The notes under the pieces were generated by a model, which searched no databases, was not told the DNA's origin, and was given only the letters and a program-made list of their open reading frames with translations. A DNA stretch of 64,000 nucleotides from an uncultured Clostridia bacterium. GTDB lineage: Bacteria > Bacillota > Clostridia > TANB77 > CAG-465. The position numbers were made by a program, and so were the translations under genes. Where the stretch lies: assembly GCA_947584535.1 (NCBI GenBank), contig CANPWO010000002.1, positions 12,784 through 76,783 on the forward strand. Direction: 5' to 3'. Shown piece by piece: positions 9,650 to 33,584 of this stretch; within the stretch, counting starts at the first letter, position 1; each line of letters starts with the position of its first letter.

Positions 9650-9994
9650 ATGTCACATTTAAATCCATTAGAAAAGGAAGTCTTAATAAAAAGATACAAA
9701 ATGAATAAAACAGTAAAGATGCAAGATTTTTGTACAACAAATAATATTTCGATAACAGCTTTTAAAAAGTGGTTAAAACAGTATGAAGAAAATGGAATAG
9801 AAGGATTAGCTAGAGCAGATAGTACAATACCAGATGTTTTACCAGAAGGAATTGATAAAACAGAAGAAACATATAAAAGGGAAATATTAAAGCTTCGAAT
9901 AGAAAATGAAAGACTAAAAAAAAATTATATGCTTCAGAAGAAAGAGGATGGAACACAGGAATACATTCGTTTAAAACTCAAGAATTCGAAATAG
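9650..9994 (+). CDS. IS3-family transposase OrfA (HTH)
   Basis: 114 aa with an HTH and a leucine-zipper-like tail. An A-run slippery site (cta aaa aaa aat, 9916-9924) lies before its stop. Confidence 0.85.
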   Translation: MSHLNPLEKEVLIKRYKMNKTVKMQDFCTTNNISITAFKKWLKQYEENGIEGLARADSTIPDVLPEGIDKTEETYKREILKLRIENERLKKNYMLQKKEDGTQEYIRLKLKNSK

Positions 9995-17300: not shown

Positions 17301-18758
17301 ATTATATATATCATTCTTCAGACTAATAGTGCCAACTCCAGAGATTTTCCTTACAAATTTTTGAGGATAAGGAGCAATATCAGCAGGTTCTATTTTAGTA
17401 AAGTCTCCTATTTGTGTCTCATCTAAACTACTTTTAAAACTTTCAACTGTTGTCATTGTTGTTTGATCTATATAATTTACATATACTTGAACCTCTTTAT
17501 CTATTTTTACAACTTCTTTATAATAATATACTACTCCTAAATCGCCAGAAATTTGATTAGCACCATCAACATGGCAATTTTTAACGTTATTACCATGCCA
17601 AACTTCACTATTATTATTTGAAATATTGTAAACATAAACTTCAGCACATTCATATGTTTTTCCATTATATTGTATTTGAGCAGCAGCATTATTTCCAGAT
17701 AATGTAGTTAATCCATTTGATGTAATATACTTTTCTTGCCAACCACTTGAATCTATACTTGTATATTGATTTTCCAAAGTAGTATTACTATCATCTACTA
17801 ATTGAGTATTTGCAATACCAATTATATTTTCATTTGAATTAATTATTTTATGTGCTACAAAAACACTTCTATTTCTTGTTGGAATTGATATACGATTATC
17901 AAAATTATTTAGCACAGACTGCCCTTTAATTCCATTTTCAGCGACGTCATGCCAAGAAGTAGAATCATATGTCCATATATCTCCTTCAGGACCGAAACCA
18001 TAGTTAGAATTTGCCCACGAATTTTCCATATTACTATAAAAATCATATGCATTATTATATAATCCTGCATTACCCCATTTAGTAGCTAATATGCCACTAA
18101 AAAAAGTCTCATAAGTATTGCCAGTTCCTGCACTAACTCCAAGTTTATTATACAAAGCTTTTGTTGCTTCATTATTTAACTGGAATGTATTAATTGTAAA
18201 CCAATTATTAGTTGTTCCTTGAACATTATATAAATCATAACCATAATGCTCTTTAGTCCAACTATTCACTGTTAAAATTTCTAGTTCTAATAAATCATTA
18301 AAGCTTTTTCCAGTTATCCATGTAGGTGCCATCGCAACTTTACTTTTATAGCTCTCTAAATCATATACACCATCTGAACCCCCTCCAGTATACACATTAA
18401 ATGGTCCTTCAGAACTATAGTCATATCCAACAAATCGACTTGCTCCACTTTTTGCATCGCTATAATTTGACATATACCTATTATGGAAAGTTACACCAAC
18501 AGTCTCATATGAACCTGAGCCACCTCCAGAAGATTTAACTGCAGAATGAGACTCCACATCGGATGTGTTATTATAATTAGGACTATCCTTACTAAATGAT
18601 TTAACATAATTTGTCCATCTAAGACTCATTGTATTCTCAGAATAAGAATTTAATAATTCTGCCTTATAATACAAATCTTTTGCAAATAAAGAAGGTGCAA
18701 AAAAACATATTAAAGTTACTAATGAAAATATAATTTTGTTTATAATATTCTTTTTCAT
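14355..18758 (-). CDS. Large secreted N/S/T/Y-rich protein (1467 aa), last gene of the filament operon
   Basis: Sec-type signal peptide (MKKNIINKIIFSLVTLICFFAPSLFA). No recognisable catalytic motifs. A 9-nt gap separates it from the upstream gene. Confidence 0.7.
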   Translation of the reverse strand: MKKNIINKIIFSLVTLICFFAPSLFAKDLYYKAELLNSYSENTMSLRWTNYVKSFSKDSPNYNNTSDVESHSAVKSSGGGSGSYETVGVTFHNRYMSNYSDAKSGASRFVGYDYSSEGPFNVYTGGGSDGVYDLESYKSKVAMAPTWITGKSFNDLLELEILTVNSWTKEHYGYDLYNVQGTTNNWFTINTFQLNNEATKALYNKLGVSAGTGNTYETFFSGILATKWGNAGLYNNAYDFYSNMENSWANSNYGFGPEGDIWTYDSTSWHDVAENGIKGQSVLNNFDNRISIPTRNRSVFVAHKIINSNENIIGIANTQLVDDSNTTLENQYTSIDSSGWQEKYITSNGLTTLSGNNAAAQIQYNGKTYECAEVYVYNISNNNSEVWHGNNVKNCHVDGANQISGDLGVVYYYKEVVKIDKEVQVYVNYIDQTTMTTVESFKSSLDETQIGDFTKIEPADIAPYPQKFVRKISGVGTISLKNDIYNKTTALSYNGKQYYYVGMKYASGSDYLEALRIGSLNSGTAPKNNKGLIIPSLSETRVYLISFYFKPGTSIQSNEHDPKVEGRLDFINTGSYFKGATYRSSDRTATELDYIPANEQLSPYIYGAQPYFIKAIDYGVSDYKSSDDKTVSVTLTGNWTEYDDCGDEENPCPGHAKSVNYTYTAKVKYKYNKIDNLITYKISNVKVNDSDSNIGGKLFNSNDSFTLSTSNDYLSRSNATITDHVLTADFKYSSTSTSSAGDNPSASAVANAVGLKLVATCTNDVVKIDNNVELTKGNEKSISKTISSQNGNEYTLDSTTSDYLSSNIDNYMKGTQNLTTYNDFNYSGNIQTVNASNQNGIRQLKGDITYSKVNVRGGNSNFTADKALTNTNDSNVIENNKSIEVGKLSSNFSSTYDNEGDFNADKVRRVNVLTPLSVNAKIDTENSVNHSNVSGSVLQTGKEFTLDVNSKNYSGSIYSNVPTDRYIKGYYITFDFKLEYRGEATAKVYNGSGGWDDLNPGNSIEANTDVYVEGSNIKFKGISTGTEDYVSAWSTSNHISVVAVTKSIDNTRLRDVFDSNSNRITSSNFKNFSNWIARSMSWGNFFDFGKYIDTSSSTTAVTNRRTLTSQVTDNLLKRNDLYASTNHAVRTQVTTNNIGRIFDFMVTDCTDLAYKNIFRKQNNSGSQVNQHTNNVYFSGKKYFVYSDMSSGNNEFMLEDANRKTLLPLGPYKNTQSTYIFAPKLGYRISFNVSTSGYYTRGNAVKRIEITPKYYYVSKSGKYIKDIKLYYKDSSGKYKEFVNSGYSIYFKPNDGYRYGLFNPIDSGEINKISNKLEKLNVSEKIVLNTNMMLMSNSGYIQTWFGEFKLPNSTIAVDCSGSTEHNNINNPLNDGYIGVVFDDMHSVESRTGGPTIETYYNQNDKTKSGIPNTSQWDYEGYMGVTAGQSARVNLQLEKGSWSIDDSVYQDIKGTVILYDLDNRAATDFN

Positions 18759-18767
18759 ACTACCTCC

Positions 18768-20027
18768 TTAATTTGTTTTTATTTCATTTTTTGATATATC
18801 TAATAACATAGAGCTTATACTTTCTTGAGAAACATATACCTGTTTAGAGCCAAATACATATCCCATTTTTGCATCTATGTATACAGTATAATTATTTTTA
18901 TCATATATCTTTGTTTTCCCTATATTATCCATATATAATAAATTTTCTTTAGTATTAGCTTCTTTTACCTCAAATTCAAGTTTCATCCTAATTCTGCAAT
19001 ATCCACCATCGTTATATATACAAGGAATTTGAGCAGTTGCCTTACCCGAAATACTAATTTTATTATTTTTTACATATTGAACATATTTATTTAACTCAAC
19101 ATCTTCTACATTTCCTACAACTAAATTTTGTAATTTTTGATGTAAATCATCATATGAAATATCTTTATATGATATATTTAAAATACTATTAAAATAATCT
19201 TCTGCCGTTTTTATTGTACTTATATAATAATCTTTTCTATATGTATAAAAATCTGCTGGATTAAGAAATTCTTTTTCTTGTTCAACTTTATATGATTGCT
19301 CATAAACTTCTTTATCTACATCAGACACAATATATGGATAATCATTAGAATTGCTAGGTAAATTTTTTTCATCTGTTACAATTGTTCTTCCTAGGATTGA
19401 CAATAAATTATACTTATTTATATATTTTATTATTATTCTATTACATAATCCCTTTTTCAAAGCTTTATATGCATTTAATCTATATTTACTATTTTCTATT
19501 ATATCTTCACTTAATAAATCCAATATATATATTTTTTCATTATCATTATACTTTTTGTAATCACTTAAATTAATAGTATCTGTAGAAGAATATTCTTTAC
19601 CTAATAAATAATACTTTGCTTTTGAAATATATTGTATAATATCCATATATCTAGCACTTTTATTTATATTTTTTATATTTACTTCTTCAGGAGTTGTAAT
19701 TCCAATAGAGTATGAATAATTAAGTATTTTCTCTTCTTCATTCTTTCCCTCAGTATTTAGAATTAATTCTTCTATTTCCAAAGTATTTTTTGTAGAACAA
19801 ATTGCTAATTTTAAAGCTTCAATTTTTGTAACATTCTCATTAGGATTATTGCTTTCATTATTATACAATTTATTTAATCCATATATATTAATTTTTTCTT
19901 CATATTCTCCATATTCATATTTATCTTTAAAATTTAAGATTAATATAATACCAAATAATAAAATTACTACTATACAAGAAATTATTAATATAATTAACTT
20001 TGCTTTCTTGTTATTTTTTAACTTCAT
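18768..20027 (-). CDS. N-terminally membrane-anchored protein, paralog of 20036-21370
   Basis: One TM segment (LIILIISCIVVILLFGIILIL). It shares INIYGLNKLYNNE...VTKIEALKLAI and a C-terminal YCRIRMKLEF block with the neighbouring gene. Confidence 0.65.
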   Translation of the reverse strand: MKLKNNKKAKLIILIISCIVVILLFGIILILNFKDKYEYGEYEEKINIYGLNKLYNNESNNPNENVTKIEALKLAICSTKNTLEIEELILNTEGKNEEEKILNYSYSIGITTPEEVNIKNINKSARYMDIIQYISKAKYYLLGKEYSSTDTINLSDYKKYNDNEKIYILDLLSEDIIENSKYRLNAYKALKKGLCNRIIIKYINKYNLLSILGRTIVTDEKNLPSNSNDYPYIVSDVDKEVYEQSYKVEQEKEFLNPADFYTYRKDYYISTIKTAEDYFNSILNISYKDISYDDLHQKLQNLVVGNVEDVELNKYVQYVKNNKISISGKATAQIPCIYNDGGYCRIRMKLEFEVKEANTKENLLYMDNIGKTKIYDKNNYTVYIDAKMGYVFGSKQVYVSQESISSMLLDISKNEIKTN

Positions 20028-20035
20028 TACATCAC

Positions 20036-21370
20036 CTATTTATTTGTATTACTAACTATACAATCATTAATACTTTGTAAATATACATATAAACTATTTT
20101 CGTTATCACGTTTATTTACTGGCAAATCAACTATAACTTGTCTATCATTTTCATCATAATTATATGTATTGTTATACTTAAGACTATCACCAAAGAATAT
20201 ATTGTTCTTATTATCTGCATTTTCAATAGAATATGAAACAGTACATCTTATTCTATAATTATTTCCATCAAAATAAAATGCAGGGTATACCACTTTACAT
20301 TGTCCTTTAACAATAATATGATTGCTTTTTACATAATTTATATATTCTTCTATTGTTTTATCTGGTACAGGATATAACAAACTATCATTTAATGCTCTTT
20401 TAAAATCATCAATTTTAATCGTATTATAATCAATATTTAAGATTGTTAACATATATTCTTGTACTCTAACTCCTAAAGAGTAAAAATTTTCTTTAAACTC
20501 AGAATAAATTTCTGAAGGTTTCTTAAATTTTGTAACATCTGAATACAAATATCTTGTTTCATATGTTTGCTTATTAACATTTGATACACAATATGCATAA
20601 TCTAAATAATTTTTAGGTAATTTTTCATCATTTATAACTATCTTTTCATCATTTTCTGTAATAGTATTATATTTTTCTGAATATAATACTATTAATTTAT
20701 TTAATTCACCTTTTGATACTTTCTTATCCGCATTTAAATTCTCAGATTTATCTTCAATAATCTTATTCCATACCATATCTCTAATAATAATTTTATCTTC
20801 ATTACTATATTTATCAAAATCTGAAAATTTTGGATTTGCCTCTATATCAGTATTTAAATTCAATATTTTAACTTTAGAATTATACATATATTTTAAACAA
20901 TCCATTAAAGTTGCTTTATCATTATAGTTGTCTTTATTTATTTCATTATTAGATATAATTTCATTTTCTATTGCATATTCTACCCACTCTTGATTTTCAT
21001 AATCTAAATTCTCAATATAGACTAATTTATCAATATTTGACATATTTATAGTAGCAGATACAATTAACTTTATAGCTTCACTTTTTGTAACTCTCTGATA
21101 TTCTGTAGTTTTCTCATTATCATATAATTGTCCAAATCCATAAATATTCATTTTATCAGAATATTGACTATATTGTTTATATTTATTTAAAAACAAATTA
21201 ATAATCAAAATTATACTTACAGAAAGTATAATAAGTATTATAATACAAATTAATACTTTTGTAATTTTTGATTTTATTTTTTTTGGTTTATTGTGCGTTT
21301 CAACTTTTTTATTATAATTAGGTATAATTTTAGTCTTGTTTTCTATAATATCAGTTTTATTTTCTTCCAA
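20036..21370 (-). CDS. N-terminally membrane-anchored protein, paralog of 18768-20027
   Basis: One TM segment (VLICIIILIILSVSIILIINLF), MNIYGFGQLYDNE...VTKSEAIKLIV, and C-terminal YRIRCTVSYS. Confidence 0.65.
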   Translation of the reverse strand: MEENKTDIIENKTKIIPNYNKKVETHNKPKKIKSKITKVLICIIILIILSVSIILIINLFLNKYKQYSQYSDKMNIYGFGQLYDNEKTTEYQRVTKSEAIKLIVSATINMSNIDKLVYIENLDYENQEWVEYAIENEIISNNEINKDNYNDKATLMDCLKYMYNSKVKILNLNTDIEANPKFSDFDKYSNEDKIIIRDMVWNKIIEDKSENLNADKKVSKGELNKLIVLYSEKYNTITENDEKIVINDEKLPKNYLDYAYCVSNVNKQTYETRYLYSDVTKFKKPSEIYSEFKENFYSLGVRVQEYMLTILNIDYNTIKIDDFKRALNDSLLYPVPDKTIEEYINYVKSNHIIVKGQCKVVYPAFYFDGNNYRIRCTVSYSIENADNKNNIFFGDSLKYNNTYNYDENDRQVIVDLPVNKRDNENSLYVYLQSINDCIVSNTNK

Positions 21371-21385
21371 TTACATCACCTCTTT

Positions 21386-22564
21386 TTATGGATTACATAT
21401 TGGGCATGGATAAAAGCCACCTTGTATATCATTATTGCCATCAATTGTATAAGTAACCATTGCAGATGCTGCCTGTTGTTTTGTTAACACATATGAAGGT
21501 GTAATAATACTTCCACCCGAATAATTATCACCATTATGATAAGACAACAAATATTCTGGACATTTTTCATCTTTATGATATAAATTTAAATTATATTTTG
21601 ATCCATTTGATAAAAATCTTGGAATAGAAAAATAATATTTATCAACTTCATCTAATTGTGAAACTGAATAAGACTTAGTATTTAAATATCTATTTCCACT
21701 GTTTAATCCTTGCACAAAAGCAAATATTCCAATATTATTTATTGCATTTGACATTTCTTCATCAGTTATTGTTGGGAAGACAAATTCATAACTTATTCCC
21801 GCATTTTTAGCATAATTATTTGCTTTATTTGTATAATACGCAATTTGTTTTACTATTGTATCTATAATTACTTGTTTTCTTACTTCCAATAAATGTTTTA
21901 TAACATTATTTCTCATTATACTATTATTACCACCATATAGTACTTTATTGTTTTCATCTACTGAATCTGATTTTGTTGAATCTGATATATAAAAACTTTT
22001 TGCATTGCCATCTGTTGTTCCTCTATGAGTTATATAGTCATCCATCGTAAATTCAACTGTATGATATTCTAAAGCTCCATCAACTCTTCCAGGTGTTGGA
22101 ACAGTTTTTCCAGCCTCTATACTATATGTATATGAATAATATACTTTTGGTTTAATAATATGTTCTACTTTATTACCAACTTTTTCTTGAGATGATATAT
22201 ATACACCATCATAATCAATTATTGCTATTACAGGTATAAAAGTTTGAAGATAACGTTCTGCAGCATCATTTCCTTTTATTCCAAAATTGTTATATAAAGA
22301 ATTTAAAAATGCTGTTTTTGCAATCTCTGGATTTATACTAACTTTACTATTTTGCAAACCAGAATAACCATAATCATTTTGAGCATCATTACTTTCAACT
22401 TCTTTCATCTGATTTGCTGCATCCTCAGTTGCAATATTTATTATCTTATTATAATACATCTCTTGTTCTTCTGCTTTTATTGTATATGAAACATTTACAT
22501 ATACTGTAATAATTATTGGTAATAATATTGCAACAAAAATTAATGCAAAATCTGTTATCTTCAC
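21386..22564 (-). CDS. Filament-locus protein with an N-terminal hydrophobic helix (392 aa)
   Basis: MKITDFALIFVAILLPIIITVYV N-terminus and a C-terminal CPxC (YPCPICNP). It is tightly packed in the operon. Confidence 0.6.
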   Translation of the reverse strand: MKITDFALIFVAILLPIIITVYVNVSYTIKAEEQEMYYNKIINIATEDAANQMKEVESNDAQNDYGYSGLQNSKVSINPEIAKTAFLNSLYNNFGIKGNDAAERYLQTFIPVIAIIDYDGVYISSQEKVGNKVEHIIKPKVYYSYTYSIEAGKTVPTPGRVDGALEYHTVEFTMDDYITHRGTTDGNAKSFYISDSTKSDSVDENNKVLYGGNNSIMRNNVIKHLLEVRKQVIIDTIVKQIAYYTNKANNYAKNAGISYEFVFPTITDEEMSNAINNIGIFAFVQGLNSGNRYLNTKSYSVSQLDEVDKYYFSIPRFLSNGSKYNLNLYHKDEKCPEYLLSYHNGDNYSGGSIITPSYVLTKQQAASAMVTYTIDGNNDIQGGFYPCPICNP

Positions 22565-22586: not shown

Positions 22587-24020
22587 TTAATTATATTCAA
22601 CCTCATATCCATAAGCTCCTCCAATTCCACCAGGTAAGTTTAATACGCAATTTGGATGTTGATTTTTATAATAAATTCTTATTTTTTCATATTTATTATC
22701 ACTATTTAATAATGAAAAGTCTATATCCATCGAAATTTTAAATATTCCGTTCTTACCTTTATATTCCTTTCCATCTGTGTATATATAAGAGCTAGGTGTT
22801 GTAATTGTAGTTTTTGTTGTTACCTTTCCAGAATTGAAACTTCTTTCACGTGTTCCTTTATCTTTAGCTATATCTTTCATAGTAGTATTTAAAATAAACT
22901 CTTGAGTTCCATCAGATTTTATTCCATATATTTGTACAATATCTCCCTCATATGCATGTCCTGTATTTCCTAAATAAACATCCAAATGCAACTTTTTTGG
23001 AAATGCATTTAAGAATTTATCAAGAGTTTTATCTAATTCTTGCATATTAATAAATCCGCCTTCACCTGTACCACCAGTTAGGTTTTCTGTTATACTTATT
23101 TTTATCTCAGTAGGATCAGTCTCATTTCCTGATGCATCTTGTCCTCTTACTAATAATGTATATTCACCTTTTATCATAGAACCAAAATTTAATGTATATT
23201 TATCACCCAAATTTGTAGTGCTCTTTTGAGATCCAGATATATTTGGGCCCTTTAATTCCCATGTATGTCCAACTATTTTATTCCACCAACTTTTATCATT
23301 ATCTGGACCTTCAGCCTCTAATTTTAAATTATCACTTAAATTAGTTGAAGGATATAAAGTTATTCCATCTTCTGGATTCTCTTTTTGAATATCATTTGTA
23401 TCTGTAATTCCATTAATAGTTTTACTATAGAATTTAACTTTCGGTCTAGTATTAACAATATGAGCTAAATCATAGTATTTTGCATCCACTTTTGCCCATG
23501 CTTGATTTTTTACTACACCCCCATAATTAACACTTATTCTTTCCTTACTTGCTGTTGGAACAATAGCATTAAATATAGCACCAGCCATAGTTGTATTACT
23601 ATTATTCACTTTTACATAAAACTGATCTCCTTCATTTAAATAATATTCTGCATTCTTAACAATATGAGCATTCATAACATCTTTAATTTCAGGATTTTCA
23701 GTAAATATATCTTTATTATAATCTATTCTGTATTGCTCATCAAAATTATTATTCTCACCACTTGTTAATATTTTTCTATGTGCTTCTAATTGTATATCAT
23801 ATATATTTCCTGTATCAGCTAATTCATTTGTATAATTTTCGTACATTTCTTGTGTTAAGTAACCATTTTCAAGTACCTCATCTACAAAGTTAGTAGTTGC
23901 TTTTAAAGCCAAGTTATATGACATGTCATCTTGTCTTTCAAAATAATTATACAATGGAAAAATAACAATAAGTATTACAAATATTAACATAGTAATAACA
24001 ATACTTAAATTATCTTTCAT
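22587..24020 (-). CDS. Filament-locus protein, paralog of 24864-25805 (N-terminal helix plus conserved TTNFV...GYLT...TGN(I/V)YDI domain)
   Basis: The first ~80 aa align closely with 24864-25805. A longer C-terminal beta-rich region follows. Confidence 0.6.
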   Translation of the reverse strand: MKDNLSIVITMLIFVILIVIFPLYNYFERQDDMSYNLALKATTNFVDEVLENGYLTQEMYENYTNELADTGNIYDIQLEAHRKILTSGENNNFDEQYRIDYNKDIFTENPEIKDVMNAHIVKNAEYYLNEGDQFYVKVNNSNTTMAGAIFNAIVPTASKERISVNYGGVVKNQAWAKVDAKYYDLAHIVNTRPKVKFYSKTINGITDTNDIQKENPEDGITLYPSTNLSDNLKLEAEGPDNDKSWWNKIVGHTWELKGPNISGSQKSTTNLGDKYTLNFGSMIKGEYTLLVRGQDASGNETDPTEIKISITENLTGGTGEGGFINMQELDKTLDKFLNAFPKKLHLDVYLGNTGHAYEGDIVQIYGIKSDGTQEFILNTTMKDIAKDKGTRERSFNSGKVTTKTTITTPSSYIYTDGKEYKGKNGIFKISMDIDFSLLNSDNKYEKIRIYYKNQHPNCVLNLPGGIGGAYGYEVEYN

Positions 24021-24049: not shown

Positions 24050-24443
24050 TTAATAAATTTGAAATTGATCTATATCTGTTAATCGTAATTGATAATTTTT
24101 ACCCTTTATATAATCAATTAAATCTTTATATTTAATATCATTTGCACGTAACCTTGAATCACTAAAGCTTACTTTTGAAATACTATTTGGTATATTTGAT
24201 GAATATTTATCTTTTTTTACGTAATTCATATAATAAGACACTACTTGGCTATCATTAATATATAAATTTTCTTCCGCTGGAGCTTCAATTAAGGTTTGTC
24301 CCGTTACCAAATTACCGATATTCATAAGACTTTTCAGCTAAATCACTTATACCATTAAATAAATACAAAGATGTAGTCAGAGCTACAATAAATATTATAA
24401 TATACACACCCGTATATATTGCTTGAAAAGCAGACTCTTCCAT
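24050..24443 (-). CDS. Pilin-like protein split into a 43-aa TM ORF (24312-24443, not in the ORF track) and a 91-aa ORF (24050-24325); joining needs a +1 shift at TAT-CGG-T
   Basis: Read by hand, the minus strand gives ATG GAA GAG TCT ... TAT GAA TAT CGG TAA (MEESAFQAIYTGVYIIIFIVALTTSLYLFNGISDLAEKSYEYR). Skipping C 24317 gives a product of roughly 130 aa, the same size and layout as neighbouring pilin-like genes. Confidence 0.5.
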
Positions 24444-24461
24444 AATATTACTCCTTCCTGT

Positions 24462-24848
24462 TTAGTTGAATTTAATTGTGACTTTTATATCATTTCTTTC
24501 TATACTACAATTATATTTTTTGTTATATTCTGTTTCTTGACCATATTTATTGTTTATTTGATCTTCAGATAATGTATTATTTTGATTTGAATAATTTTTT
24601 ACAGTTATATTTACATTATTATCTTTATAATATTTATTTAATGCATTTAAAAGGTCTAAACCTGTTTTGGTTGTACCATCAAATTCATCAAATTCATCAA
24701 ATCCACTGGAAATATTTATATCCGTTTCATAGACATCGGAATACACATCTCTCATTAATCCTATAGAAACAAATATAGCGGATGTAATTGCTATAGTAAT
24801 AAATATAGCTACACCAATAACAATAGCCTTATTTGTTATAAAATTCAA
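24462..24848 (-). CDS. Pilin-like protein 4 (128 aa)
   Basis: N-terminus MNFITNKAIVIGVAIFITIAITSAIF matches the locus consensus K-A-I-x-I-G-V plus a hydrophobic helix. Confidence 0.65.
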   Translation of the reverse strand: MNFITNKAIVIGVAIFITIAITSAIFVSIGLMRDVYSDVYETDINISSGFDEFDEFDGTTKTGLDLLNALNKYYKDNNVNITVKNYSNQNNTLSEDQINNKYGQETEYNKKYNCSIERNDIKVTIKFN

Positions 24849-24863
24849 ATTATATTCCTCCTT

Positions 24864-25805
24864 CTATATATAAAAACTCTTATCTGTATCATCAATGACT
24901 CCATCACCATTTACATCAGCTATTATTTTCTGTACTACTGTTAAACTAGATGGATCATCTTTGTATTTATTAATTAATTCCTTATCCCTATCATCAACTA
25001 TTGCATCCTGGTTAATATCTCCACGTTTACTAACTCTATACTCTTGATTTTTAATTGTTCCACCATAATTAATATATACTTTAGTGTTATTACCAGCATT
25101 TGCTCCAAAAGTTAATGTATTAAATAACATACTTGCTATAGTTGTATTGGTATTTTTTACTACAATTGTAAATTGATCACCAGTATTTAATGTCATTATT
25201 CCTTCGTTAATTAAGCCATATATTCTTGAATTAATTGGAATATCATTTATAGATTTATTATTATATTGACTAGTATTAGAAGGTACAAAATTACTCTCTC
25301 CATTTAACAAATTTATTATTTGATCTGTAGAATATTTTCTATTAGATAATTTATATGTAACTTGTGCCTTTGTAGAAGAATCATTTTTACTAAAGCCTAG
25401 TATATTTATATCATTAAAAATATCTTTTTTTGAGTTATCCTTATCATAGGCTTCAAAATCATCTTTTTTTTCTAAATAATCATACTCCTTGACTAATACC
25501 ACTTTTCCATTACTTGCATTAGTTTTCCCCAGTATTTGTATTACTGGATTATATTGCTTAGCCACATATTCCATTGATATATCATAGACATTTCCTGTTG
25601 TCGAAAGTTCACTAATATAATCATTATACATATCTATGGTTAAATAACCTTTTTCAGTTACTTGATTTACAAAATTAGTAGTTACTTTTAATGCTAATGC
25701 ATAAGCAATATCATCTTTTTTTTCAAATGCAATATATAATGGAAGTAAAAAAAATATTAAAACTGATAATAATATAGCAAATATTCTTTGTACAACATCT
25801 TCCAT
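24864..25805 (-). CDS. Filament-locus protein with an N-terminal helix and a C-terminal type-I dockerin-like module
   Basis: The N-terminal region is paralogous to 22587-24020. The C-terminus has GDINQDAIVDDRD and ADVNGDGVIDDTD, two EF-hand-like D-x-N-x-D-x(6)-D loops. Confidence 0.65.
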   Translation of the reverse strand: MEDVVQRIFAILLSVLIFFLLPLYIAFEKKDDIAYALALKVTTNFVNQVTEKGYLTIDMYNDYISELSTTGNVYDISMEYVAKQYNPVIQILGKTNASNGKVVLVKEYDYLEKKDDFEAYDKDNSKKDIFNDINILGFSKNDSSTKAQVTYKLSNRKYSTDQIINLLNGESNFVPSNTSQYNNKSINDIPINSRIYGLINEGIMTLNTGDQFTIVVKNTNTTIASMLFNTLTFGANAGNNTKVYINYGGTIKNQEYRVSKRGDINQDAIVDDRDKELINKYKDDPSSLTVVQKIIADVNGDGVIDDTDKSFYI

Positions 25806-25814
25806 ATAACTCTC

Positions 25815-26255
25815 CTAACTATCTTTATCTATATTTATTGTAATTATTTCATTATTAATGTTATGTTCTATTTTATATTTACTATTTGGTAAAATAAATT
25901 TAATTACATCTTTTATTCTTTCTTTATCAGATTGTATACCCTGTTCTAAAGATGTTTCTACAATATTTCCACTTGAATCATTTTTATACAATTTTAGTTT
26001 CTGTGTGTTTATAACAACATTACTTTTTCCTGCAAAATAATCTAATAAGTTTTGTACATCAGTACCATTACATTTTTTCTTTAATAAAATATCTTCTATA
26101 CTTTTATCATATAGCCCTGCTATATCTACACCACTACCTATTTCTTTTACTGCATCTTTAGCAGTATTATAGTATGTAAGAACAGCTGTTATAGTTATAA
26201 TAGATACAAGTACGCCCACTCCAATTGTTATTGCTCTAACTGTAACATCTTCCAT
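25815..26255 (-). CDS. Pilin-like protein 3 (146 aa)
   Basis: N-terminus MEDVTVRAITIGVGVLVSIITITAVL. Confidence 0.65.
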   Translation of the reverse strand: MEDVTVRAITIGVGVLVSIITITAVLTYYNTAKDAVKEIGSGVDIAGLYDKSIEDILLKKKCNGTDVQNLLDYFAGKSNVVINTQKLKLYKNDSSGNIVETSLEQGIQSDKERIKDVIKFILPNSKYKIEHNINNEIITINIDKDS

Positions 26256-26346
26256 TATTTCACACTCCTTAAATTGAAAAGTAAATATATGTTTTAAAAA
26301 ATATGCAAAACAATTTTACATACTTTTTAAAGCACATAAATGTACT

Positions 26347-26895
26347 TTAAATGGCTAAAAAAGCCATACCAACTATATATCCATTACATCTTATTAATAC
26401 TGATTTATATTTTCCGCTTATATTAATATAGTTCTTATTACCTGACTTACCATATGATTTCAAATCCTTTTTTAAAACATTATTAATTGATTTTTCATCT
26501 ATTAATAAACTAGTAACATCATTATAATTATTTGAAATAATAATACTTTCAAAATTTGTATTTTGGCCAAATTTAGCACTTCTACCTGTAATCCAAAATC
26601 TATCTACTGCATTATCATAATTTTTGCTATTATTAAGTAATAATATAAACAAATCATCCCTATTATAATAATTATCTATTGTCGTAAGTACTTCTGTACC
26701 TGACAAAATTGTATTATCATATATCTTACTTGTACTATTACTTAATAAATCAGATGTAATAATCATTTTTCTAGTAACATTATTAGTTGTATCAAATAAT
26801 TGTAAACAAATAAAATACAAAGAAATTATAATAATAACTGAAATTATTATTAATCCTATATGTTCTACAATTAATAACTTTAATTCTTTAAACAT
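26347..26895 (-). CDS. Pilin-related protein (182 aa) with an N-terminal helix and the shared C-terminal strand motif
   Basis: N-terminal hydrophobic helix. The C-terminus NGYIVGMAFLAI resembles AIVGIRFQQK and AILGLYFKKE of pilin-like proteins 1 and 2. Confidence 0.55.
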   Translation of the reverse strand: MFKELKLLIVEHIGLIIISVIIIISLYFICLQLFDTTNNVTRKMIITSDLLSNSTSKIYDNTILSGTEVLTTIDNYYNRDDLFILLLNNSKNYDNAVDRFWITGRSAKFGQNTNFESIIISNNYNDVTSLLIDEKSINNVLKKDLKSYGKSGNKNYINISGKYKSVLIRCNGYIVGMAFLAI

Positions 26896-26902
26896 ATATC
26901 TA

Positions 26903-27376
26903 TCATTCTTTCTTAAAGTAAAGACCTAAAATGGCATCTGATTGCTTTTGGTAAATGATGTATGATCGATAATTTTCATTTGTTACTATTTCATTTGATA
27001 AAGAAGATATAGATGGATTATTATTCATTTCAACGGTTCCATCAAATTTATATACAGTATTATCTATTTGCGAATGTCCCCAGTTAGTAACCTTTAGTGT
27101 TGCATAATTTCTATTTACATCTTTTACAATCAATAAAAAATTAGGCTTATTATAAAATTTTTTAATAGTAGCAATTACACTTGCACCTGTCATAGTTTTA
27201 TAATCATAATCAGCAAGTAACTGCGATGATACACTTGCAGAAACACCACTTAATTGTTCATTACTACTTCTCATTGTATCAGTTCCAATATTAGTTATAA
27301 TTAATACAGCTGAAATTAGAGATATAGTTATTAATAATCCTACTCCAATTGCAATAGCCTTTTGTGCACTATCCAT
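26903..27376 (-). CDS. Pilin-like protein 2 (157 aa)
   Basis: MDSAQKAIAIGVGLLITISLISAVL; paralog of 27468-27977 along its whole length. Confidence 0.7.
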   Translation of the reverse strand: MDSAQKAIAIGVGLLITISLISAVLIITNIGTDTMRSSNEQLSGVSASVSSQLLADYDYKTMTGASVIATIKKFYNKPNFLLIVKDVNRNYATLKVTNWGHSQIDNTVYKFDGTVEMNNNPSISSLSNEIVTNENYRSYIIYQKQSDAILGLYFKKE

Positions 27377-27415
27377 ATATATACCTCACTTTATAACAAA
27401 TAAAAAATATTAATA

Positions 27416-27455
27416 AAAGGTATATAACTATTATTTAGTATAATTATATACCTTT
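27416..27455 (-). terminator. Hairpin directly after the first pilin-like gene (possible intra-operon attenuator)
   Basis: 12-bp perfect stem aaaggtatataa / ttatataccttt, followed on the minus strand by a T-rich tract. Confidence 0.4.
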
Positions 27456-27467
27456 CAATTATTCTAA

Positions 27468-27977
27468 TTATTTTTGTTGAAATCTAATACCTACAATTGC
27501 ATCATTTAAAGTTATAAGATTAGCTGAAAACTGAGCTGTAGTTGGAATATATTTAGCTTTTCCAGCTGTAGTTATATCTCCCATACTAGTTGTTGTTTTT
27601 GCAGCTTTAGTAACTGAAGAAGTGCTTGCAAGAGCCACTCTTCCGTCTGAACCTGGAGTTGAAGTTGGATTATTACTATAGCTAGTAGGAGTAGCCCAAT
27701 AATCCCCACCATTTGCTTTTAAATCTACATAAACAGCTAAATTAGTGTTATTATAATAGTTTTTTACAGCTGACAAAACTTGTGCACCAGTCATAGTTAC
27801 ATTATCATAACTATCTGTTAATTGTTGTTGTAATTGCGAACTCATTCCACTTAATTGTTGTGTTCCACTATTAAGTAAATCTTGTCCCATTCCAGTTATA
27901 AGCATTACTGCTGCTATAATTATAATAGTTATAAAAAGTCCTACACCAATCATAATCGCTTTTTGTGCGTTATCCAT
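27468..27977 (-). CDS. Pilin-like protein 1 (169 aa), candidate major subunit
   Basis: MDNAQKAIMIGVGLFITIIIIAAVML. It is the first structural gene after the platform gene, has a strong AAAGGAGGAAA RBS, and has its own flanking hairpins. Confidence 0.7.
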   Translation of the reverse strand: MDNAQKAIMIGVGLFITIIIIAAVMLITGMGQDLLNSGTQQLSGMSSQLQQQLTDSYDNVTMTGAQVLSAVKNYYNNTNLAVYVDLKANGGDYWATPTSYSNNPTSTPGSDGRVALASTSSVTKAAKTTTSMGDITTAGKAKYIPTTAQFSANLITLNDAIVGIRFQQK

Positions 27978-28071: not shown

Positions 28072-30129
28072 TTAGAAAGTCATATTGCTAAAGTAAGACA
28101 TCATTTGCATTATACTTACTATCATAAGTGGTGCAACTAAATATCCACCAATTAGTAGTACCATAGGTGCAAACCCTAATACCTTACCATAAGTAACTTT
28201 CTTTTGAATAAGTCTTTCATTTGCATCCTTTCTTCTTTCATGGAAGAATGCTCTTTCAGTTTCAAGTTCATCAAATGCATCTCTAATAGGTATTCTTTCA
28301 ACTGCAGAAAGTAATTGTTCGCATATTCTTTGGAAATCTTTGTATGGAACATCTTCCTTTAACTGTTCAAGAGCTACCTCTGCACCTGCTTCATAGTTGT
28401 TTAAACAAGTTGCAATTGGCTCCTTAAATGCATATGAAAATCTTTCAAGCCATTCAAGTATTGTTTGAACATCAATTCTATCAATATACATAAGCATTAA
28501 TATAATTGACTGAAATTGCATTATTTCGTTTTCTTTTTCCATTTCTCTTATCTTGTTTCTAATCATTAAAAGTAACGTTGGCATATAATATGCAACTATT
28601 GCGCATAAAAGAGAAACTAATACATGCCAAAATTTAATATATGAATTATTTACCGTATTTATTTTATCATATACTCTATCAACAGCTGTTTGATCAACTG
28701 TTCCAGTAGCCGAATCAGTAAACTCCATTGCTAGTTCTTCTTTTGTTACATTTTTGTTTTTGTACTTGTCTAGATAAGACTTATCTCTTTCATTTAATGC
28801 TTCTGCTGCTGCTTCTTGTTCAGCACTTAACTTACCAAATGATAAAAATTCATCACTTATTTTATTGTATACAGCACTAACATCAATTCTTTGCATGTTA
28901 AACATCAATATAAGTACGAGTATAAATGTTATAGCTGCCGCTGTAAGTTTATTAACATATAACCATTCTATTGTTAGATAAGAGTTTGTATTTTTTATAA
29001 GGATTGTTTCATTTCTATTTTTTCTAGTATGTGGCTTAGATTTAAAAGCATCAACTATCATTTTTACAAATGGATATTTATATACCTTATCTTGCCACTT
29101 CCTACCAGACATTCTATCAAATTTTATTTCTTCTGAATCTTCACGTACAATTCTAAGCATTAGATAAGAAATAAATATTGATACTATAATTAATGACTGC
29201 ATTACAAAGCCTATACTACTGTTATAGAAATTAGATAGTGCAGGGAAGTTTGACTCTGCCCAACCTTGTAATGGTTTTATTGCAAAAAGAGGTGCAACTG
29301 CAATTATAGTTAAACTTCTAAACATATAATTGATTTTATCTCTTTTTAATATTTCTAGATGTATCTCAGTTAATATATTATTTAAATTTTTAAGATATAC
29401 TGAAGTCCCATCTACTTTTTTATCTCCAAGATCAAGAGTTAGATAAGATACACCTGCAAACAGTTTTAAAAATCTATTTGGTGCAGTATCATAGTATCTT
29501 TCAAGCTCTGTTTCTGGATTAGTTGAAAGCATTGCTTCTTTAATTCTTTTTAGTTGAGGTACAACTTCTTTTTCGCCTAAATCGTCAATTGCCTCAACGA
29601 AAGATTCTTCTATCATTCCATGTTCATGAAATGCATGTCTTATACTTGTAAACACTTCCGGTAACTGTCTTAGTATCTTTTCTGATACAGCTGTTATTCC
29701 AAAATCTATTATCTTTTCTGTAATAATAAGTACACCTACTATTATCATTAAAGACATATACAAGTCATTTACTAAATTTATAAATACAAATAGTGAGACA
29801 AACAAGAATCCAAGTGCTATAAGCATTGACTTACCAGTTCTACGTCTTATTTCATATTCTGTATAATCGTTTGTCATTTCCATTTTTAGTCTTGTCTTTT
29901 TAGTATAATATTTTATAATTGGCATTTTTACAAATGTTAAATAAACAATTTGATAAATTCTATCAAAACCATCTTTAACTGAGCCTTTATTTTTTACAAC
30001 TAATTGATCTTGACTAAAAAGTGCACTATTCTTTTTATATCTTCTTTTTACTAATTGAAAATATACAAGTAAAGCAATTAAACCAACAACTGATATTGCA
30101 ACTAGGCCTATAGCTATATAAATTATCAA
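28072..30129 (-). CDS. Polytopic membrane protein, TadB/TadC (T2SS-F)-like platform, long fused form (685 aa)
   Basis: Multiple TM segments separated by helical cytoplasmic regions. It sits immediately after the CpaF-like ATPase, and the assignment rests on position and architecture. Confidence 0.55.
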   Translation of the reverse strand: MIIYIAIGLVAISVVGLIALLVYFQLVKRRYKKNSALFSQDQLVVKNKGSVKDGFDRIYQIVYLTFVKMPIIKYYTKKTRLKMEMTNDYTEYEIRRRTGKSMLIALGFLFVSLFVFINLVNDLYMSLMIIVGVLIITEKIIDFGITAVSEKILRQLPEVFTSIRHAFHEHGMIEESFVEAIDDLGEKEVVPQLKRIKEAMLSTNPETELERYYDTAPNRFLKLFAGVSYLTLDLGDKKVDGTSVYLKNLNNILTEIHLEILKRDKINYMFRSLTIIAVAPLFAIKPLQGWAESNFPALSNFYNSSIGFVMQSLIIVSIFISYLMLRIVREDSEEIKFDRMSGRKWQDKVYKYPFVKMIVDAFKSKPHTRKNRNETILIKNTNSYLTIEWLYVNKLTAAAITFILVLILMFNMQRIDVSAVYNKISDEFLSFGKLSAEQEAAAEALNERDKSYLDKYKNKNVTKEELAMEFTDSATGTVDQTAVDRVYDKINTVNNSYIKFWHVLVSLLCAIVAYYMPTLLLMIRNKIREMEKENEIMQFQSIILMLMYIDRIDVQTILEWLERFSYAFKEPIATCLNNYEAGAEVALEQLKEDVPYKDFQRICEQLLSAVERIPIRDAFDELETERAFFHERRKDANERLIQKKVTYGKVLGFAPMVLLIGGYLVAPLMIVSIMQMMSYFSNMTF

Positions 30130-30134
30130 CTATA

Positions 30135-32027
30135 TCACCTCCATGCTACATCAAGGAAGTTATCAAATTCCTTCACATCTTCAGGAGACATATTTTCTCT
30201 CATTGAAGTAATATTTTCTTCACTTATTGGATTTGTAAATACATACTTTCCATCATGCCACTCTACTATATTTCTATATGTATAATTACCATTCTCTGTT
30301 TGGTGTTCAAAATATTCAACTGCATTATCCATGAATTTATCTAGTTTACCATCCATTGATCTTTCATTTTTATAATCGTTATTATAGTTAAATTCAGGAT
30401 CTAGAGGAATACACTCTGTTATTCTTTCTATATATCTTGTTCCATCTACACCTCTTTTTAGATGGATATCAAAGTTTATAACTTGTACAACCTGTACTTC
30501 TGCAACATTTTCATTATTGAACATTCCAATTTTTAGTAATGAGTTTCTTAGTGCTGTTATAAGGTTAGGGAATGTTTTAGCATGGTGTGTAAATAATGTA
30601 AATTTAGAGGCAACCTGTGCCATTTGAATCATCCAAGCAGCAACGGGGTCTGTTGCAACCTCTCCTAGGATGTTAACACCACCATCTGTTTTCTTTTGAA
30701 CATCAAGTCCCATTTGACCTGTAATTGTATCTGTTTCTCTTAAAGATAGGATATTGTGATAAGGATAAATTTTTCTTAAGTGCAATTCGAACGCAGTTTC
30801 CTGTACACGAATTGTAATTGTTGGATATAAGTATTTCATTATAGCCATTAGAAGTGTTGTTTTACCACAACCCTGCTCACCTGTTATAGCTGTTACTCTT
30901 GCACCTCTAATAAGATACTTAAGCAATTCAATAACATTTTCTTTATTTTCATGTATAAGTAGTTGTTCTGCAGATATTAAAGTTGGTGGAGCAAATTTTC
31001 TTACGAAAAATGCCCATGATTCTGAGAAGTTTGGTCTAAGAACAACAACTCTGGAACCATCTTTCATTTCATTGATTTTAAAACCAACTGATTCAGATAA
31101 TTGTCCTGGATTATTGAATTTATATATATTTTGACATACTCTTTTAAGTTCTGCTTCACTGCCAAAAGATAAGAATGATAAATATGTAGCTTTACCTTTA
31201 TAGAATATCCATACTGAATCATATGACATCGGTATTTTTCTAGTTCCCATTTGTTCAAAATATTCATCCATACCTGAAATTTGATCTAGGAATGAAGGTG
31301 GGATACCAGATACACCACCAGATACACCATCAATATTCATATCACGAATATCATCAATTACGCTATATCCTTTATATCCTTGATATATTCTTTGAACAAC
31401 TATTTCAAGTTCATCATCAAATGTTAATGTATCAGCTGATACCTCTCTTGCAAATATATCTTCTATTTCTTTTGCAGTTATAACATATGATGGAACCTCA
31501 GGATCAAACTCATATTTTGGTACATCCAAATTATATTTTGTAATAATTTCTGTTAATGCTTCAGCATTATATTTCTTTTTATATATATGAAGCAAAATTT
31601 CAAACTTATCTTGAGGTGTCAATTCATCAAAATTATTAAAAGGTATTGCATTATTTATATTAAATTCATTTACTTTATAATTATTTCTAAGCAAATCAAA
31701 CATAAGAGTTTTTACATATTTTTTATCACTCTTATCTGCATAACCTGCTCCTTTTAATGCTTTTTTTAAATCATATTTTACATTTCTTCTTCTTTCAAAT
31801 TCCTCTTCTGAAAGAGCTAAATCATATAGATTCATTCTTGTTATTTCATCAAATTCTTTCTTTATATATTCTTTCATTTGATTTATACTATATTTTTCTC
31901 TTTCACGTGTTATAAGGTCTTTCTTTTCTTCTTGGTCAGAATGCTTTATTTTATAATAGAAAAAGCCCACTACAACTGCTACTAATAGAAGAATTAATAA
32001 TATGTTAAATATAAATGCAACTGACAT
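30135..32027 (-). CDS. cpaF: CpaF/TadA-type (T2SS-E/VirB11 superfamily) secretion ATPase with an N-terminal TM helix
   Basis: Walker A GEQGCGKTTLL, with downstream ETAFEL, ILGEVA and FTHHAK boxes in CpaF order. The N-terminus MSVAFIFNILLILLLVAVVVGFFYY is strongly hydrophobic. Confidence 0.75.
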   Translation of the reverse strand: MSVAFIFNILLILLLVAVVVGFFYYKIKHSDQEEKKDLITREREKYSINQMKEYIKKEFDEITRMNLYDLALSEEEFERRRNVKYDLKKALKGAGYADKSDKKYVKTLMFDLLRNNYKVNEFNINNAIPFNNFDELTPQDKFEILLHIYKKKYNAEALTEIITKYNLDVPKYEFDPEVPSYVITAKEIEDIFAREVSADTLTFDDELEIVVQRIYQGYKGYSVIDDIRDMNIDGVSGGVSGIPPSFLDQISGMDEYFEQMGTRKIPMSYDSVWIFYKGKATYLSFLSFGSEAELKRVCQNIYKFNNPGQLSESVGFKINEMKDGSRVVVLRPNFSESWAFFVRKFAPPTLISAEQLLIHENKENVIELLKYLIRGARVTAITGEQGCGKTTLLMAIMKYLYPTITIRVQETAFELHLRKIYPYHNILSLRETDTITGQMGLDVQKKTDGGVNILGEVATDPVAAWMIQMAQVASKFTLFTHHAKTFPNLITALRNSLLKIGMFNNENVAEVQVVQVINFDIHLKRGVDGTRYIERITECIPLDPEFNYNNDYKNERSMDGKLDKFMDNAVEYFEHQTENGNYTYRNIVEWHDGKYVFTNPISEENITSMRENMSPEDVKEFDNFLDVAWR

Positions 32028-32058: not shown

Positions 32059-32874
32059 TTAATTATCCCTAATTTTTGCAAGTTCAAATATTTTATTTAC
32101 TACATCCATTGTTTGTGAAATAAACATTCCATTATAATCCTTTGGGTCTGCATTTAAATTTCTATAGAAGAAATCAATAACATTTCCCATATTACATGCA
32201 TCTGCATAAAGATAATTATGAGGAACTGCATATATTGGATCTTTTACTCTAAATTTATTTTTTATATTCAAAATATTATATCTAGAATGTGGTTCATAAT
32301 CAGCTATTAAGAATATCTTTGTTTTATCTTTTAGCTCTTCCATATTATTTACTTTTTCAAAGAAATCATTTAATTTTACTTCATCTTGATTAACTACACA
32401 TACAACAATTTCAGCATCTGAAAGAGTGTCTAATTTAAACTTTTCATCATCGCTCTTTGGTAAGTCAACAAAAACCAGATCATAAACTTCAGCAGCTTTT
32501 CTAGTTATATATGGAAGATTATTTACAAGTTGTGAGTAATCTTCTTTTTCTTTAGAATTCATACCATATAAAATATCTAAACGCTCTTTTAAAACTGGTT
32601 TTGCATAGTTTTGTATTGCATCAGCAGTTAATTTATTAGATGTAACAAGTCTAATTAATGCACTTACACCTAAACTTGAACTGTCTAATGCACCACTTGC
32701 AATAAGCTCATCATAAGGAGTAAAAGATGATTCTATTTTTTTAGAATTAAAATGTCCTTGCATAAGTAAGCATGTTGCTTTATGTGATATACCCATTAAT
32801 GTACTAACTGCAACAATAGCATGAGTTGTTCCAACCATTGTATTATCTGGGCTCCAAAATACTACTCTTGGCAT
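32059..32874 (-). CDS. ParA/MinD-fold (TadZ/CpaE-like) protein with a degenerate P-loop
   Basis: RVVFWSPDNTMVGTTHAIVAVS replaces KGGxGK[ST]. A Walker-B-like LVFVDLP is present. It lies between the other ParA-like gene and the ATPase. Confidence 0.55.
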   Translation of the reverse strand: MPRVVFWSPDNTMVGTTHAIVAVSTLMGISHKATCLLMQGHFNSKKIESSFTPYDELIASGALDSSSLGVSALIRLVTSNKLTADAIQNYAKPVLKERLDILYGMNSKEKEDYSQLVNNLPYITRKAAEVYDLVFVDLPKSDDEKFKLDTLSDAEIVVCVVNQDEVKLNDFFEKVNNMEELKDKTKIFLIADYEPHSRYNILNIKNKFRVKDPIYAVPHNYLYADACNMGNVIDFFYRNLNADPKDYNGMFISQTMDVVNKIFELAKIRDN

Positions 32875-33584
32875 TAATCTCTCCTCCTTTTGATTTTATT
32901 TGCTACATCTTTAGATGTTACATCATCAACTATTTCAGCTGTAATATCAGCTATAGTACTTATATATGGTTTAGAATGTTTTTTAATATCAATTAAGCCA
33001 CTTAATTGTGAATCAATATTTTCAATTCTATCTCTATCATCATTTGGTATTTCATATTCTGGTTCAATCCATTTTACATTATATTCGTCTATTTGTGTTT
33101 CAAAATAATTTTCACTTGACCTTGATAAATATGCTTTAAACCATACTTTAGTAAGTTGTACTTCCTCTTGTTGATTATATACTCTTATTGCTTTAACCAT
33201 TTCTTTATTTTTAGCTATTGATAAAACACTTGTATCTATAAAGAAGTATACTTTATCCATTCCTCTTGTTCTAAATAGTTCATACCCTTTTGGGCTATCA
33301 ATATCAATCAATATATGATCATAAAGATTGATATTGATACCTTGTTCTATCATATAATTTTCAACATCATGCATACTGTTAAATCCAACAGCAAAATCAA
33401 TATTATTATATTGTGTAACATATGACCTTCCAATATTATCCAACGCAGGAACAACATACTTTAATTTTTGGTCTAACGTTGCATCTACAACAAGTACAGA
33501 TTTATCCATTATATTTATTGTTCTAGCTAAATTAATTGCAAAATCATATTTATCCATATAGCCTACTAATCCAATTACTTGCAT
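32874..33584 (-). CDS. Second ParA/MinD-fold (TadZ/CpaE-like) protein with a degenerate P-loop
   Basis: MQVIGLVGYMDKYDFAINLA and VLVVDATLD follow the ParA layout without a lysine-bearing Walker A. Its stop overlaps the start of the downstream gene. Confidence 0.5.
   Translation of the reverse strand: MQVIGLVGYMDKYDFAINLARTINIMDKSVLVVDATLDQKLKYVVPALDNIGRSYVTQYNNIDFAVGFNSMHDVENYMIEQGININLYDHILIDIDSPKGYELFRTRGMDKVYFFIDTSVLSIAKNKEMVKAIRVYNQQEEVQLTKVWFKAYLSRSSENYFETQIDEYNVKWIEPEYEIPNDDRDRIENIDSQLSGLIDIKKHSKPYISTIADITAEIVDDVTSKDVANKIKRRRD

Follow-up and report, generated by a model that had tools for sequence, protein, structure and literature searches.

Tad (Flp) pili, the type IVc filaments described as Cpa in Caulobacter and as Tad in Aggregatibacter and found also in the monoderms Bifidobacterium and Eubacterium rectale, are thought to have arisen from Epd-like pili of the archaea (Denise et al. 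2019, PMC6668835). Their loci begin with a CpaB/RcpC-like SAF protein and continue through the TadZ position, a CpaF/TadA-type ATPase and the platform (TadB and TadC) to the pilins and pseudopilin-like proteins. The Flp subunit is small (~50–60 amino acids, mature ~40–60) and carries a G|xxxxEY motif. Archaeal type IV pili (Epd, Aap and haloarchaeal PilA) have class III signal peptides cut by PibD, EppA or FlaK, with a short leader ending in K/R and a small residue and no Glu5, a globular head on the subunit and a single polytopic platform gene. In the type IVa and Com pili of monoderms (Streptococcus sanguinis, Clostridia), the subunit is a lollipop with an α1 helix of more than 50 residues, several minor pilins have a common N-terminal signature, adhesive domains are grafted onto modular subunits and a large non-pilin protein closes the locus. 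Here we describe a locus with features of each of these systems, in a 64,000-nucleotide stretch (the window) of contig CANPWO010000002.1 (assembly GCA_947584535.1, positions 12,784 to 76,783 of the forward strand) from an uncultured Clostridia bacterium. At its centre is a family of small pilin-like genes at 24050–27977 of the window.

The products of the small genes are probably the subunits of a type IV-filament-like pilus, and the machine that builds it would be a very divergent one of the Tad/archaeal-pilus branch. That the proteins are pilin-like had been proposed in an earlier note on this DNA, and the proposal is well supported by the context of CpaB-like, CpaF-like and polytopic genes, by the conservation signature and by the lollipop shape of the AlphaFold2 model. 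As a system, the locus is closest to Tad; the shape of the subunit is like that of archaeal or type IVa pilins, and the family is none of those described. Literature searches found no description of the present pilin family.

The operon and its putative assembly machinery

The small genes lie in the middle of an uninterrupted minus-strand run, a conserved 17-gene operon reading from 34791 to 14355. In order, it encodes a CpaB-like SAF protein, two soluble proteins, a CpaF-like ATPase, a 685-residue protein, the pilins, modular adhesin-like proteins and a 1467-residue secreted protein. This order matches that of Tad, with the two soluble proteins at the TadZ position, and a secretin is missing, as expected for a monoderm Tad system. 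The gene order is kept in 54 species-level genomes, from lineages that include Clostridium sp. CAG:921, CAG:1219, CAG:465 and metagenome-assembled genomes (MAGs) labelled Christensenellales. A profile of the paralogues retrieved 886 relatives, every one unnamed or "hypothetical", and an exhaustive search returned 1343 clusters at 50% identity for the family of the 169-residue protein; one variant of the 685-residue protein occurs on 556 contigs. The core is also present in two distant Firmicute lineages. One is a Bacilli-like isolate of 55% G+C (GCA_000714935.1, locus L058), probably a Tumebacillus. The other has 39% G+C and a minimal locus (L061) with a major pilin, a 130-residue pilin, a 180-residue core protein and a 319-residue protein. 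Between the distant lineages, identity is 55–60% for the ATPase, 33–37% for the platform and ~27% for the major pilin. The relatives found are from Firmicutes only, with no archaeal homologue among them.

The first gene of the operon (33634–34791, minus strand, as are all operon genes below) encodes a CpaB/RcpC-like protein with one N-terminal transmembrane (TM) helix and a SAF domain (Pfam SAF, 6.3e-10), the kind of protein expected of a Tad locus. It matches TIGR03177 (pilus_cpaB) at 4e-6, below cutoff; the L058 orthologue does so at 1.7e-10, below the trusted cutoff. The gene of the 236-residue soluble protein (32874–33584) is retained in each of the 54 loci as well as in L058, and that of the 271-residue soluble protein (32059–32874) lies between it and the ATPase gene. 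Neither protein has a Pfam or NCBIfam family or matches a TadZ (PDB 3FKQ family) or ParA profile, a difference from Tad; the best match of the 236-residue family profile in the PDB is MinD, at only 0.14.

The ATPase (30135–32027, 630 residues) is related to CpaF/TadA. Residues 276–551 match CpaF in the PDB at 3.8e-7 as a single sequence and at 2.9e-9 as a family profile, followed by VirB11 (0.0096), archaeal GspE (2OAP, 0.011) and ComGA (0.025); the profile gave no PilB or PilT match in the PDB. TIGR03819 (TadA family) is matched at 5e-6. A secretion ATPase of the PilB/GspE/TadA/FlaI family is thus encoded beside the subunits, as in type IV filament systems. ATPases of the CpaF-like family are normally soluble, and an N-terminal TM helix is unusual. 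Here a predicted TM helix at residues 3–21 is conserved and is followed by an N-terminal extension of ~270 residues without known domain, both of which set the protein apart from the Tad ATPase. Directly after the ATPase, in every locus, comes the 685-residue protein (28072–30129), which has some seven TM segments and, on the cytoplasmic side, two large regions of helices. Its AlphaFold2 model is all-helical (predicted local distance difference test, pLDDT, 69). From its position we presume it to be a fused platform, an analogue of TadB/C and PilC; Tad has TadB and TadC in place of such a single protein, which has no detectable T2SSF domain.

A single fused polytopic protein instead of TadB and TadC, the archaeal GspE-type ATPase among the marginal PDB matches and a subunit leader whose last residues are K/R and a small one, before a helix that lacks Glu5, could also point to a rotary motility filament like the archaellum, acquired from archaea. 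However, CpaF is by far the best match of the ATPase, a CpaB-like protein is present and the relatives are all Firmicutes. Scans of the operon proteins gave no match to archaellin, FlaH/ArlH, FlaF/G or FlaX-like proteins. We rejected an archaellum-like origin on the CpaF-type ATPase, the CpaB-like protein and the missing archaellum-component matches, and regard it as highly improbable. The archaeal-like leader junction, the globular head and the single presumed platform gene fit the view that Tad descends from archaeal Epd-like pili. Archaeal type IV pili themselves differ from the present system, whose relatives, as far as found, are bacterial only, and which has an acidic or neutral leader and a CpaB-like protein; a search of the loci for a peptidase of the archaeal type found none. 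Type IVa and Com pili differ in that here no PilD/ComC, PilM/N/O or PilT is present, the ATPase has no match at the level of PilB, PilT or ComGA, and the subunits have neither G-1/F+1/E+5 nor an N_methyl match.

The pilin-like proteins

Seven open reading frames, all on the minus strand, lie in 24050–27977. Four intact genes and a frameshifted one encode the pattern M-[D/E]-x3-5-[K/R/Q]-A-[I/L]-x-[I/T]-G-V, followed by ~20 hydrophobic residues. The earlier note had counted six such genes; its motif is right for these five, and its count fails on the 182- and 313-residue proteins, the first of which starts MFKELKLLIVEHIGL and the second of which belongs to another family. The major pilin candidate (27468–27977, 169 residues) starts MDNAQKA-IMIGVGLFITIIIIAAV (MDNAQKA-IMIGVG) and is the first gene after that of the 685-residue protein. 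A second major-type paralogue (26903–27376, 157 residues, MDSAQKA-IAIGVG), confined to some lineages, has the N- and C-terminal motifs of the 169-residue protein and is 38% identical to it. The 182-residue paralogue (26347–26895), despite its variant N-terminus, has the common head and a C-terminal NGYIVGMAFLAI; it is lineage-restricted (orthologues P0002–P0007, P0025, P0109 and P0115).

Three further genes belong to putative minor classes. The p146 class (25815–26255, 146 residues, MEDVTVRA-ITIGVGV...YYNTAK) is found in 52 loci, where its N-terminus is conserved as M-E/D-D/E-x3-R/K-A-I/L-x-I-G-V/A-S. The p128 class (24462–24848, 128 residues, TTG start, MNFITNKA-IVIGVA) is found in 49 loci, as M-D-x3-N-K-A-I/L-x-I-A/G-V-G/S. 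The p150 gene (24050–24443, MEESAFQA-IYTGVY) is frameshifted, with intact orthologues of 135–165 residues in 30 loci. It starts at 24443 and meets a stop near 24314, and the reading resumes in a 91-residue frame (24050–24325); the gene is split by one extra base near 24315–24320 (tat gaa tat C ggt aat), which is either an error in the assembly of the MAG or the mark of a true pseudogene.

Alignment of the paralogues shows that the relationship extends past the hydrophobic segment into the head and the C-terminal strand. Five of the small paralogues have the head motif D.YD..T.TG..V...I..YY in common, which argues for true homology beyond similar hydrophobic N-termini. The C-terminal strand that had been pointed out in three members (AIVGIRF, AILGLYF and YIVGMAF) is real and is kept throughout the family as VVGIxF.

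Conservation is concentrated at the N-terminus. Among 209 members of the 169-residue type, mean pairwise identity is ~78% over residues 1–33 as against ~29% from residue 58 to the end, and the consensus residue has a frequency of 95% in the leader (residues 1–7), 84% at residues 8–33 and 24–51% in the head. Major type IV pilins and archaellins have the same pattern of conserved helix and variable head (PMC10191384); there the N-terminus is near-invariant because the N-terminal helices make the core of the fibre. The AlphaFold2 model of the 169-residue protein (pLDDT 86.7) has a single helix of 56 residues (residues 2–57) followed by an α/β head, the last two strands of which are the conserved β-hairpin. 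The protein thus has the conserved hydrophobic N-terminal helix of ~50 residues and the variable head that characterise type IV filament subunits. In two database searches, 234 of 254 family members carried the N-terminal signature, far beyond chance. In the four pilin classes, each of them sampled from as many as 52 loci, position 2–3 is acidic and is followed by [K/R/Q]-A-[I/L]-x-[I/V]-[G/A]-[V/A]-[G/S], and the common signature argues for one shared recognition step.

Residues 1–33 of the 169-residue protein and of relatives P0006, P0018, P0022 and P0063 show a recurrent sub-threshold match to the N-terminus of the His1 virus capsid protein family (PF25665; at best, E 0.0086 and 16.5 bits, where the cutoff is 27), and the L058 pilin weakly matches haloarchaeal DUF7261 (0.067). 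Both matches probably reflect hydrophobic-helix composition. A PF26613 label on P0022 could not be reproduced in our own Pfam scan and was treated as stray.

The heads of the major-type subunits are hypervariable and rich in Ser/Thr, and in other loci the gene of the 169-residue type is present in one to three tandem copies with differing heads. Together, these features suggest surface exposure and diversifying pressure. Directly 3′ of the 169-residue gene, a terminator- or attenuator-like stem-loop (27396–27457, minus strand) has an 18-bp stem and is followed by a U-rich tract; its fold of −23.2 kcal/mol (z −3.97) was equalled in stability by none of 200 shuffles. The hairpin fits a major subunit made in excess. 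A second strong, terminator-like hairpin with a U tract (26256–26346, minus strand, z −4.01) lies between the 182- and 146-residue genes. Scanning for consensus promoters gave only the background level of AT-rich DNA.

These same observations bear on whether the subunits would form a long fibre or a short pseudopilus, a piston like that of type II secretion, driven by the same ATPase and pushing the 1467-residue protein or other cargo through the wall. The same machine genes would be expected for both, a large protein with a signal peptide always closes the operon, the L058 locus adjoins type VII secretion genes, and Tad pilus genes are reported beside the T7SSg and T7SSh loci (PMC11217815). 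The hypervariable Ser/Thr-rich heads and the variable tandem copies of the major gene speak against a piston, as do the adhesin modules (dockerin, Ig-like) attached to pilin-like cores and the large subunit excess suggested by the terminator-like hairpin. We consider a pseudopilus unlikely.

For a pilus, we infer filament formation, the minor-pilin roles and the function, and, by analogy, the steps that follow membrane insertion. The 169-residue protein would be the major subunit and the 157- and 182-residue proteins lineage-specific paralogues of it. Subunits would insert N-in/C-out through the hydrophobic N-terminal helix and would then be extracted and stacked into a helical fibre, with the near-invariant helices as its core and the Ser/Thr-rich head outward. 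The membrane-tethered CpaF-like ATPase would power assembly through the 685-residue protein, subunits being added at the base of the fibre, and the CpaB-like protein would be an envelope component across the wall zone. The 146-, 128- and ~150-residue proteins may be minor (priming or tip) pilins. The 313- and 477-residue proteins, which have a similar short acidic leader and anchor and a shared core, would place variable adhesive modules (dockerin, Ig-like, Flg_new) on the fibre or at its base, and the 1467-residue protein, related to a DUF5704 protein, is a candidate for the tip of the fibre or for a partner of it. The likely role of such a pilus is adhesion in the gut.

Leader junction and possible maturation

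The N-termini had been described as archaeal in style. The resemblance of the motif holds (K/R then Ala, no Glu at +5, IGV); membership of an archaeal family is not supported. Searches of the paralogues with the Pilin_N, Class_III signal and archaellin profiles gave no match, and neither did Flp, TadE, N_methyl or TIGR02532, at E ≤ 1 for full proteins and even at E ≤ 10 for N-terminal fragments (58-mers), divergent family members being scanned too. The subunit family therefore belongs to none of these. The strict FlaFind-type pattern fails here at +4, which is Gly. Set against Flp (PF04964), there is no Gly before the helix, no Glu/Tyr at +5/+6 and no G|xxxxEY motif, and the proteins are larger (128–190 residues) and have a globular head. 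No operon protein matches the TadE/TadF family (PF07811), the G|[FM]xxxE motif of N_methyl (PF07963/TIGR02532) is missing from the subunits, and the archaeal profiles PF07790, PF04021 and PF01917 are not matched.

No A24 peptidase is encoded in the window, which bears out the earlier note. The GxGDxK motif is present in no frame, and the polytopic reading frames are all accounted for by the 685-residue protein, two EpsG-like proteins, a diacylglycerol kinase and a histidine kinase. No neighbouring gene carries a Peptidase_A24 label among the precomputed Pfam labels. Taken with the related loci (below), these results indicate that the peptidase is not encoded in cis in the lineages examined; in Tad terms, no TadV lies in or near the loci. 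That the leader is nearly invariant argues that some partner recognises it, and the few members with V, F or S at the presumed −1 site argue against a strict requirement for a small residue. Whether a peptidase encoded outside the locus removes the leader of 6–8 residues, cutting at [K/R/Q]-A|[I/L], is, in our estimate, roughly an even call.

A number of results weigh against a pilus. No operon component matches a pilin, T2SSF or A24 profile in Pfam or NCBIfam. The matches of the ATPase to Pfam T2SSE (0.002 and 0.0004) are both below cutoff, and for the 685-residue protein neither Pfam and NCBIfam nor a PDB profile search, Foldseek or a test for internal repeats gave a T2SSF match. Foldseek searches of the PDB found no pilin structure for the pilin model (weak NTF2-like matches, E ~1) and only noise, with no platform structure, for the 685-residue model; we regard both as uninformative rather than negative. 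In 63 related loci (up to 20 kb, ~±10 kb), the only GxGDxK lay within PriA and is a product of chance. At the putative −1 position the subunits have Ala where Gly would be usual (a few members have V, F, S or G), and the leader is net neutral or acidic, not basic. The filament itself is a prediction.

Much of this would be expected if the small proteins were uncleaved signal anchors, that is, non-polymerising, membrane-tethered proteins of the wall zone whose N-termini are alike through a common membrane partner. Such anchors would explain the lack of a peptidase in cis, the lack of a pilin-family profile match or of a pilin fold in Foldseek, and the fact that some members have a residue that is not small where cleavage would occur. 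However, ~78% identity over 33 residues with a 29% ectodomain is not expected of a simple anchor, a predicted helix of 56 residues is far beyond a membrane span, and it is left unexplained why every locus strictly pairs these genes with those of a CpaF-like ATPase and a CpaB-like protein. Simple anchors seem quite improbable to us, and subunits of a pilus remain the reading we prefer.

A more specific form of the pilus reading, which we hold to be doubtful, is that the locus represents an unrecognised and widespread Firmicute branch of type IV filaments, with its own pilins, a membrane-anchored ATPase, a fused non-T2SSF platform, a [K/R/Q]-Ala|Ile junction and maturation without a canonical A24 peptidase. 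The subunits would then be either unprocessed or cut by a new enzyme, possibly one of the two unassigned soluble proteins or the 685-residue protein. If the pilus is real, an appendage that is common among abundant uncultured gut Clostridia has gone unannotated: the SAF domain and the dockerin are all that Pfam and NCBIfam pick up, and the pilins are all labelled "hypothetical protein". It would add to the Tad/archaeal side of the type IV filament tree a distinct lineage with large globular pilins and a CpaF-like motor, and its leader, which breaks the Gly(−1) rule, would make the specificity or dispensability of the prepilin peptidase testable.

Outside the operon, a 2714-residue protein (47839–55983, minus strand) starts MIFMKKRNNG-ISLLVLIITIIVMIILASAII, a canonical-looking prepilin signal with a basic leader ending in Gly and Val in place of Glu at +5. 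It contains Big_2 repeats (3.7e-12), and its match to Pilin_N is non-significant (0.069). Homology searches with its N-terminus found two fragmentary homologues only, which keep G-ISL[LI]VLIITIIVM. The protein may be a giant modular pilin, which would imply an A24 peptidase elsewhere in the same genome.

Modular and secreted proteins and the surrounding DNA

The 313-residue protein (24864–25805) starts MEDVVQRIFAILL and consists of an N-terminal anchor, a conserved core of ~180 residues and a C-terminal dockerin (residues 262–310, Pfam Dockerin_1, 4.1e-5, 24.1 bits against a cutoff of 22.9). A dockerin on a protein of the pilus operon suggests cohesin–dockerin recruitment to the appendage, and the dockerin and Ig-like modular subunits suggest a pilus-based scaffold for gut adhesion or enzyme display. 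A type I dockerin is also found on a pilus-operon protein in another locus (L035, 11142–11933). The 477-residue protein (22587–24020) has the same N-terminal core (37% identity over ~180 residues) and a variable C-terminal region; its orthologues span 166–1281 residues, some with Flg_new or Big_3_2 repeats. In L058 and L061 the core stands alone (180–186 residues).

The anchored 392-residue protein (21386–22564) starts MKITDFALIFVAILLP (MKITDFALIF...) and has a Cys-containing C-terminus. It is present in 47 loci and is a conserved core component, with orthologues of 26–28% identity in L058 and L061; no Pfam or NCBIfam family, TadE included, is matched. Two paralogous bitopic proteins of 444 and 419 residues (18768–21370) with basic N-terminal tails are found in most Clostridia loci and are missing from the minimal locus L061. 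The last gene of the run (14355–18758) encodes the secreted protein of 1467 residues, which has a signal-peptide-like N-terminus and is a candidate tip protein or associated adhesin. A distant homologue (BLASTP, 2e-7 and 3e-6), which carries DUF5704, holds the corresponding place in L058.

In GCA_000714935.1 the pilus locus lies between WXG100 and EssC genes (1279–1557 and 17724–20522 of L058), together with genes for a 427-residue protein and an SLH protein. Unspecified Tad pilus genes have likewise been reported beside T7SSg and T7SSh loci (Garrett & Palmer 2024, PMC11217815); these may or may not be the present system. A gene for a D-Ala-D-Ala carboxypeptidase (Peptidase_S11) stands directly upstream of the SAF gene and in the same orientation in ~45 of the 54 loci. 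In the window this gene (41548–42471, minus strand) is parted from the SAF gene by an insertion of ~6.7 kb with sugar-related and EpsG-like genes (35127–41500).

The window has ~25% G+C and looks like the chromosome of a spore-forming member of the Clostridia, the contig carrying MreB, SpoIID, SpoIIID, YqfD and YabP labels. Beyond the start of the window, the contig encodes only a helix-turn-helix protein, SpoIID and a tyrosyl-tRNA synthetase; the end of the window is near the end of the contig. Four paralogous AAA_14/DUF4143 ATPase genes are scattered over the window (3905–5197, 11263–12558, 39649–40947 and 62691–63890), and a fragmented IS3-family transposase (rve) lies at 9650–10947. A 975-residue protein with Cys-rich motifs (44529–47456, minus strand), which from reading its translation alone we take to be isoleucyl-tRNA-synthetase-like, has a BLASTP homologue at the edge of two of the related loci (L005 and L013).

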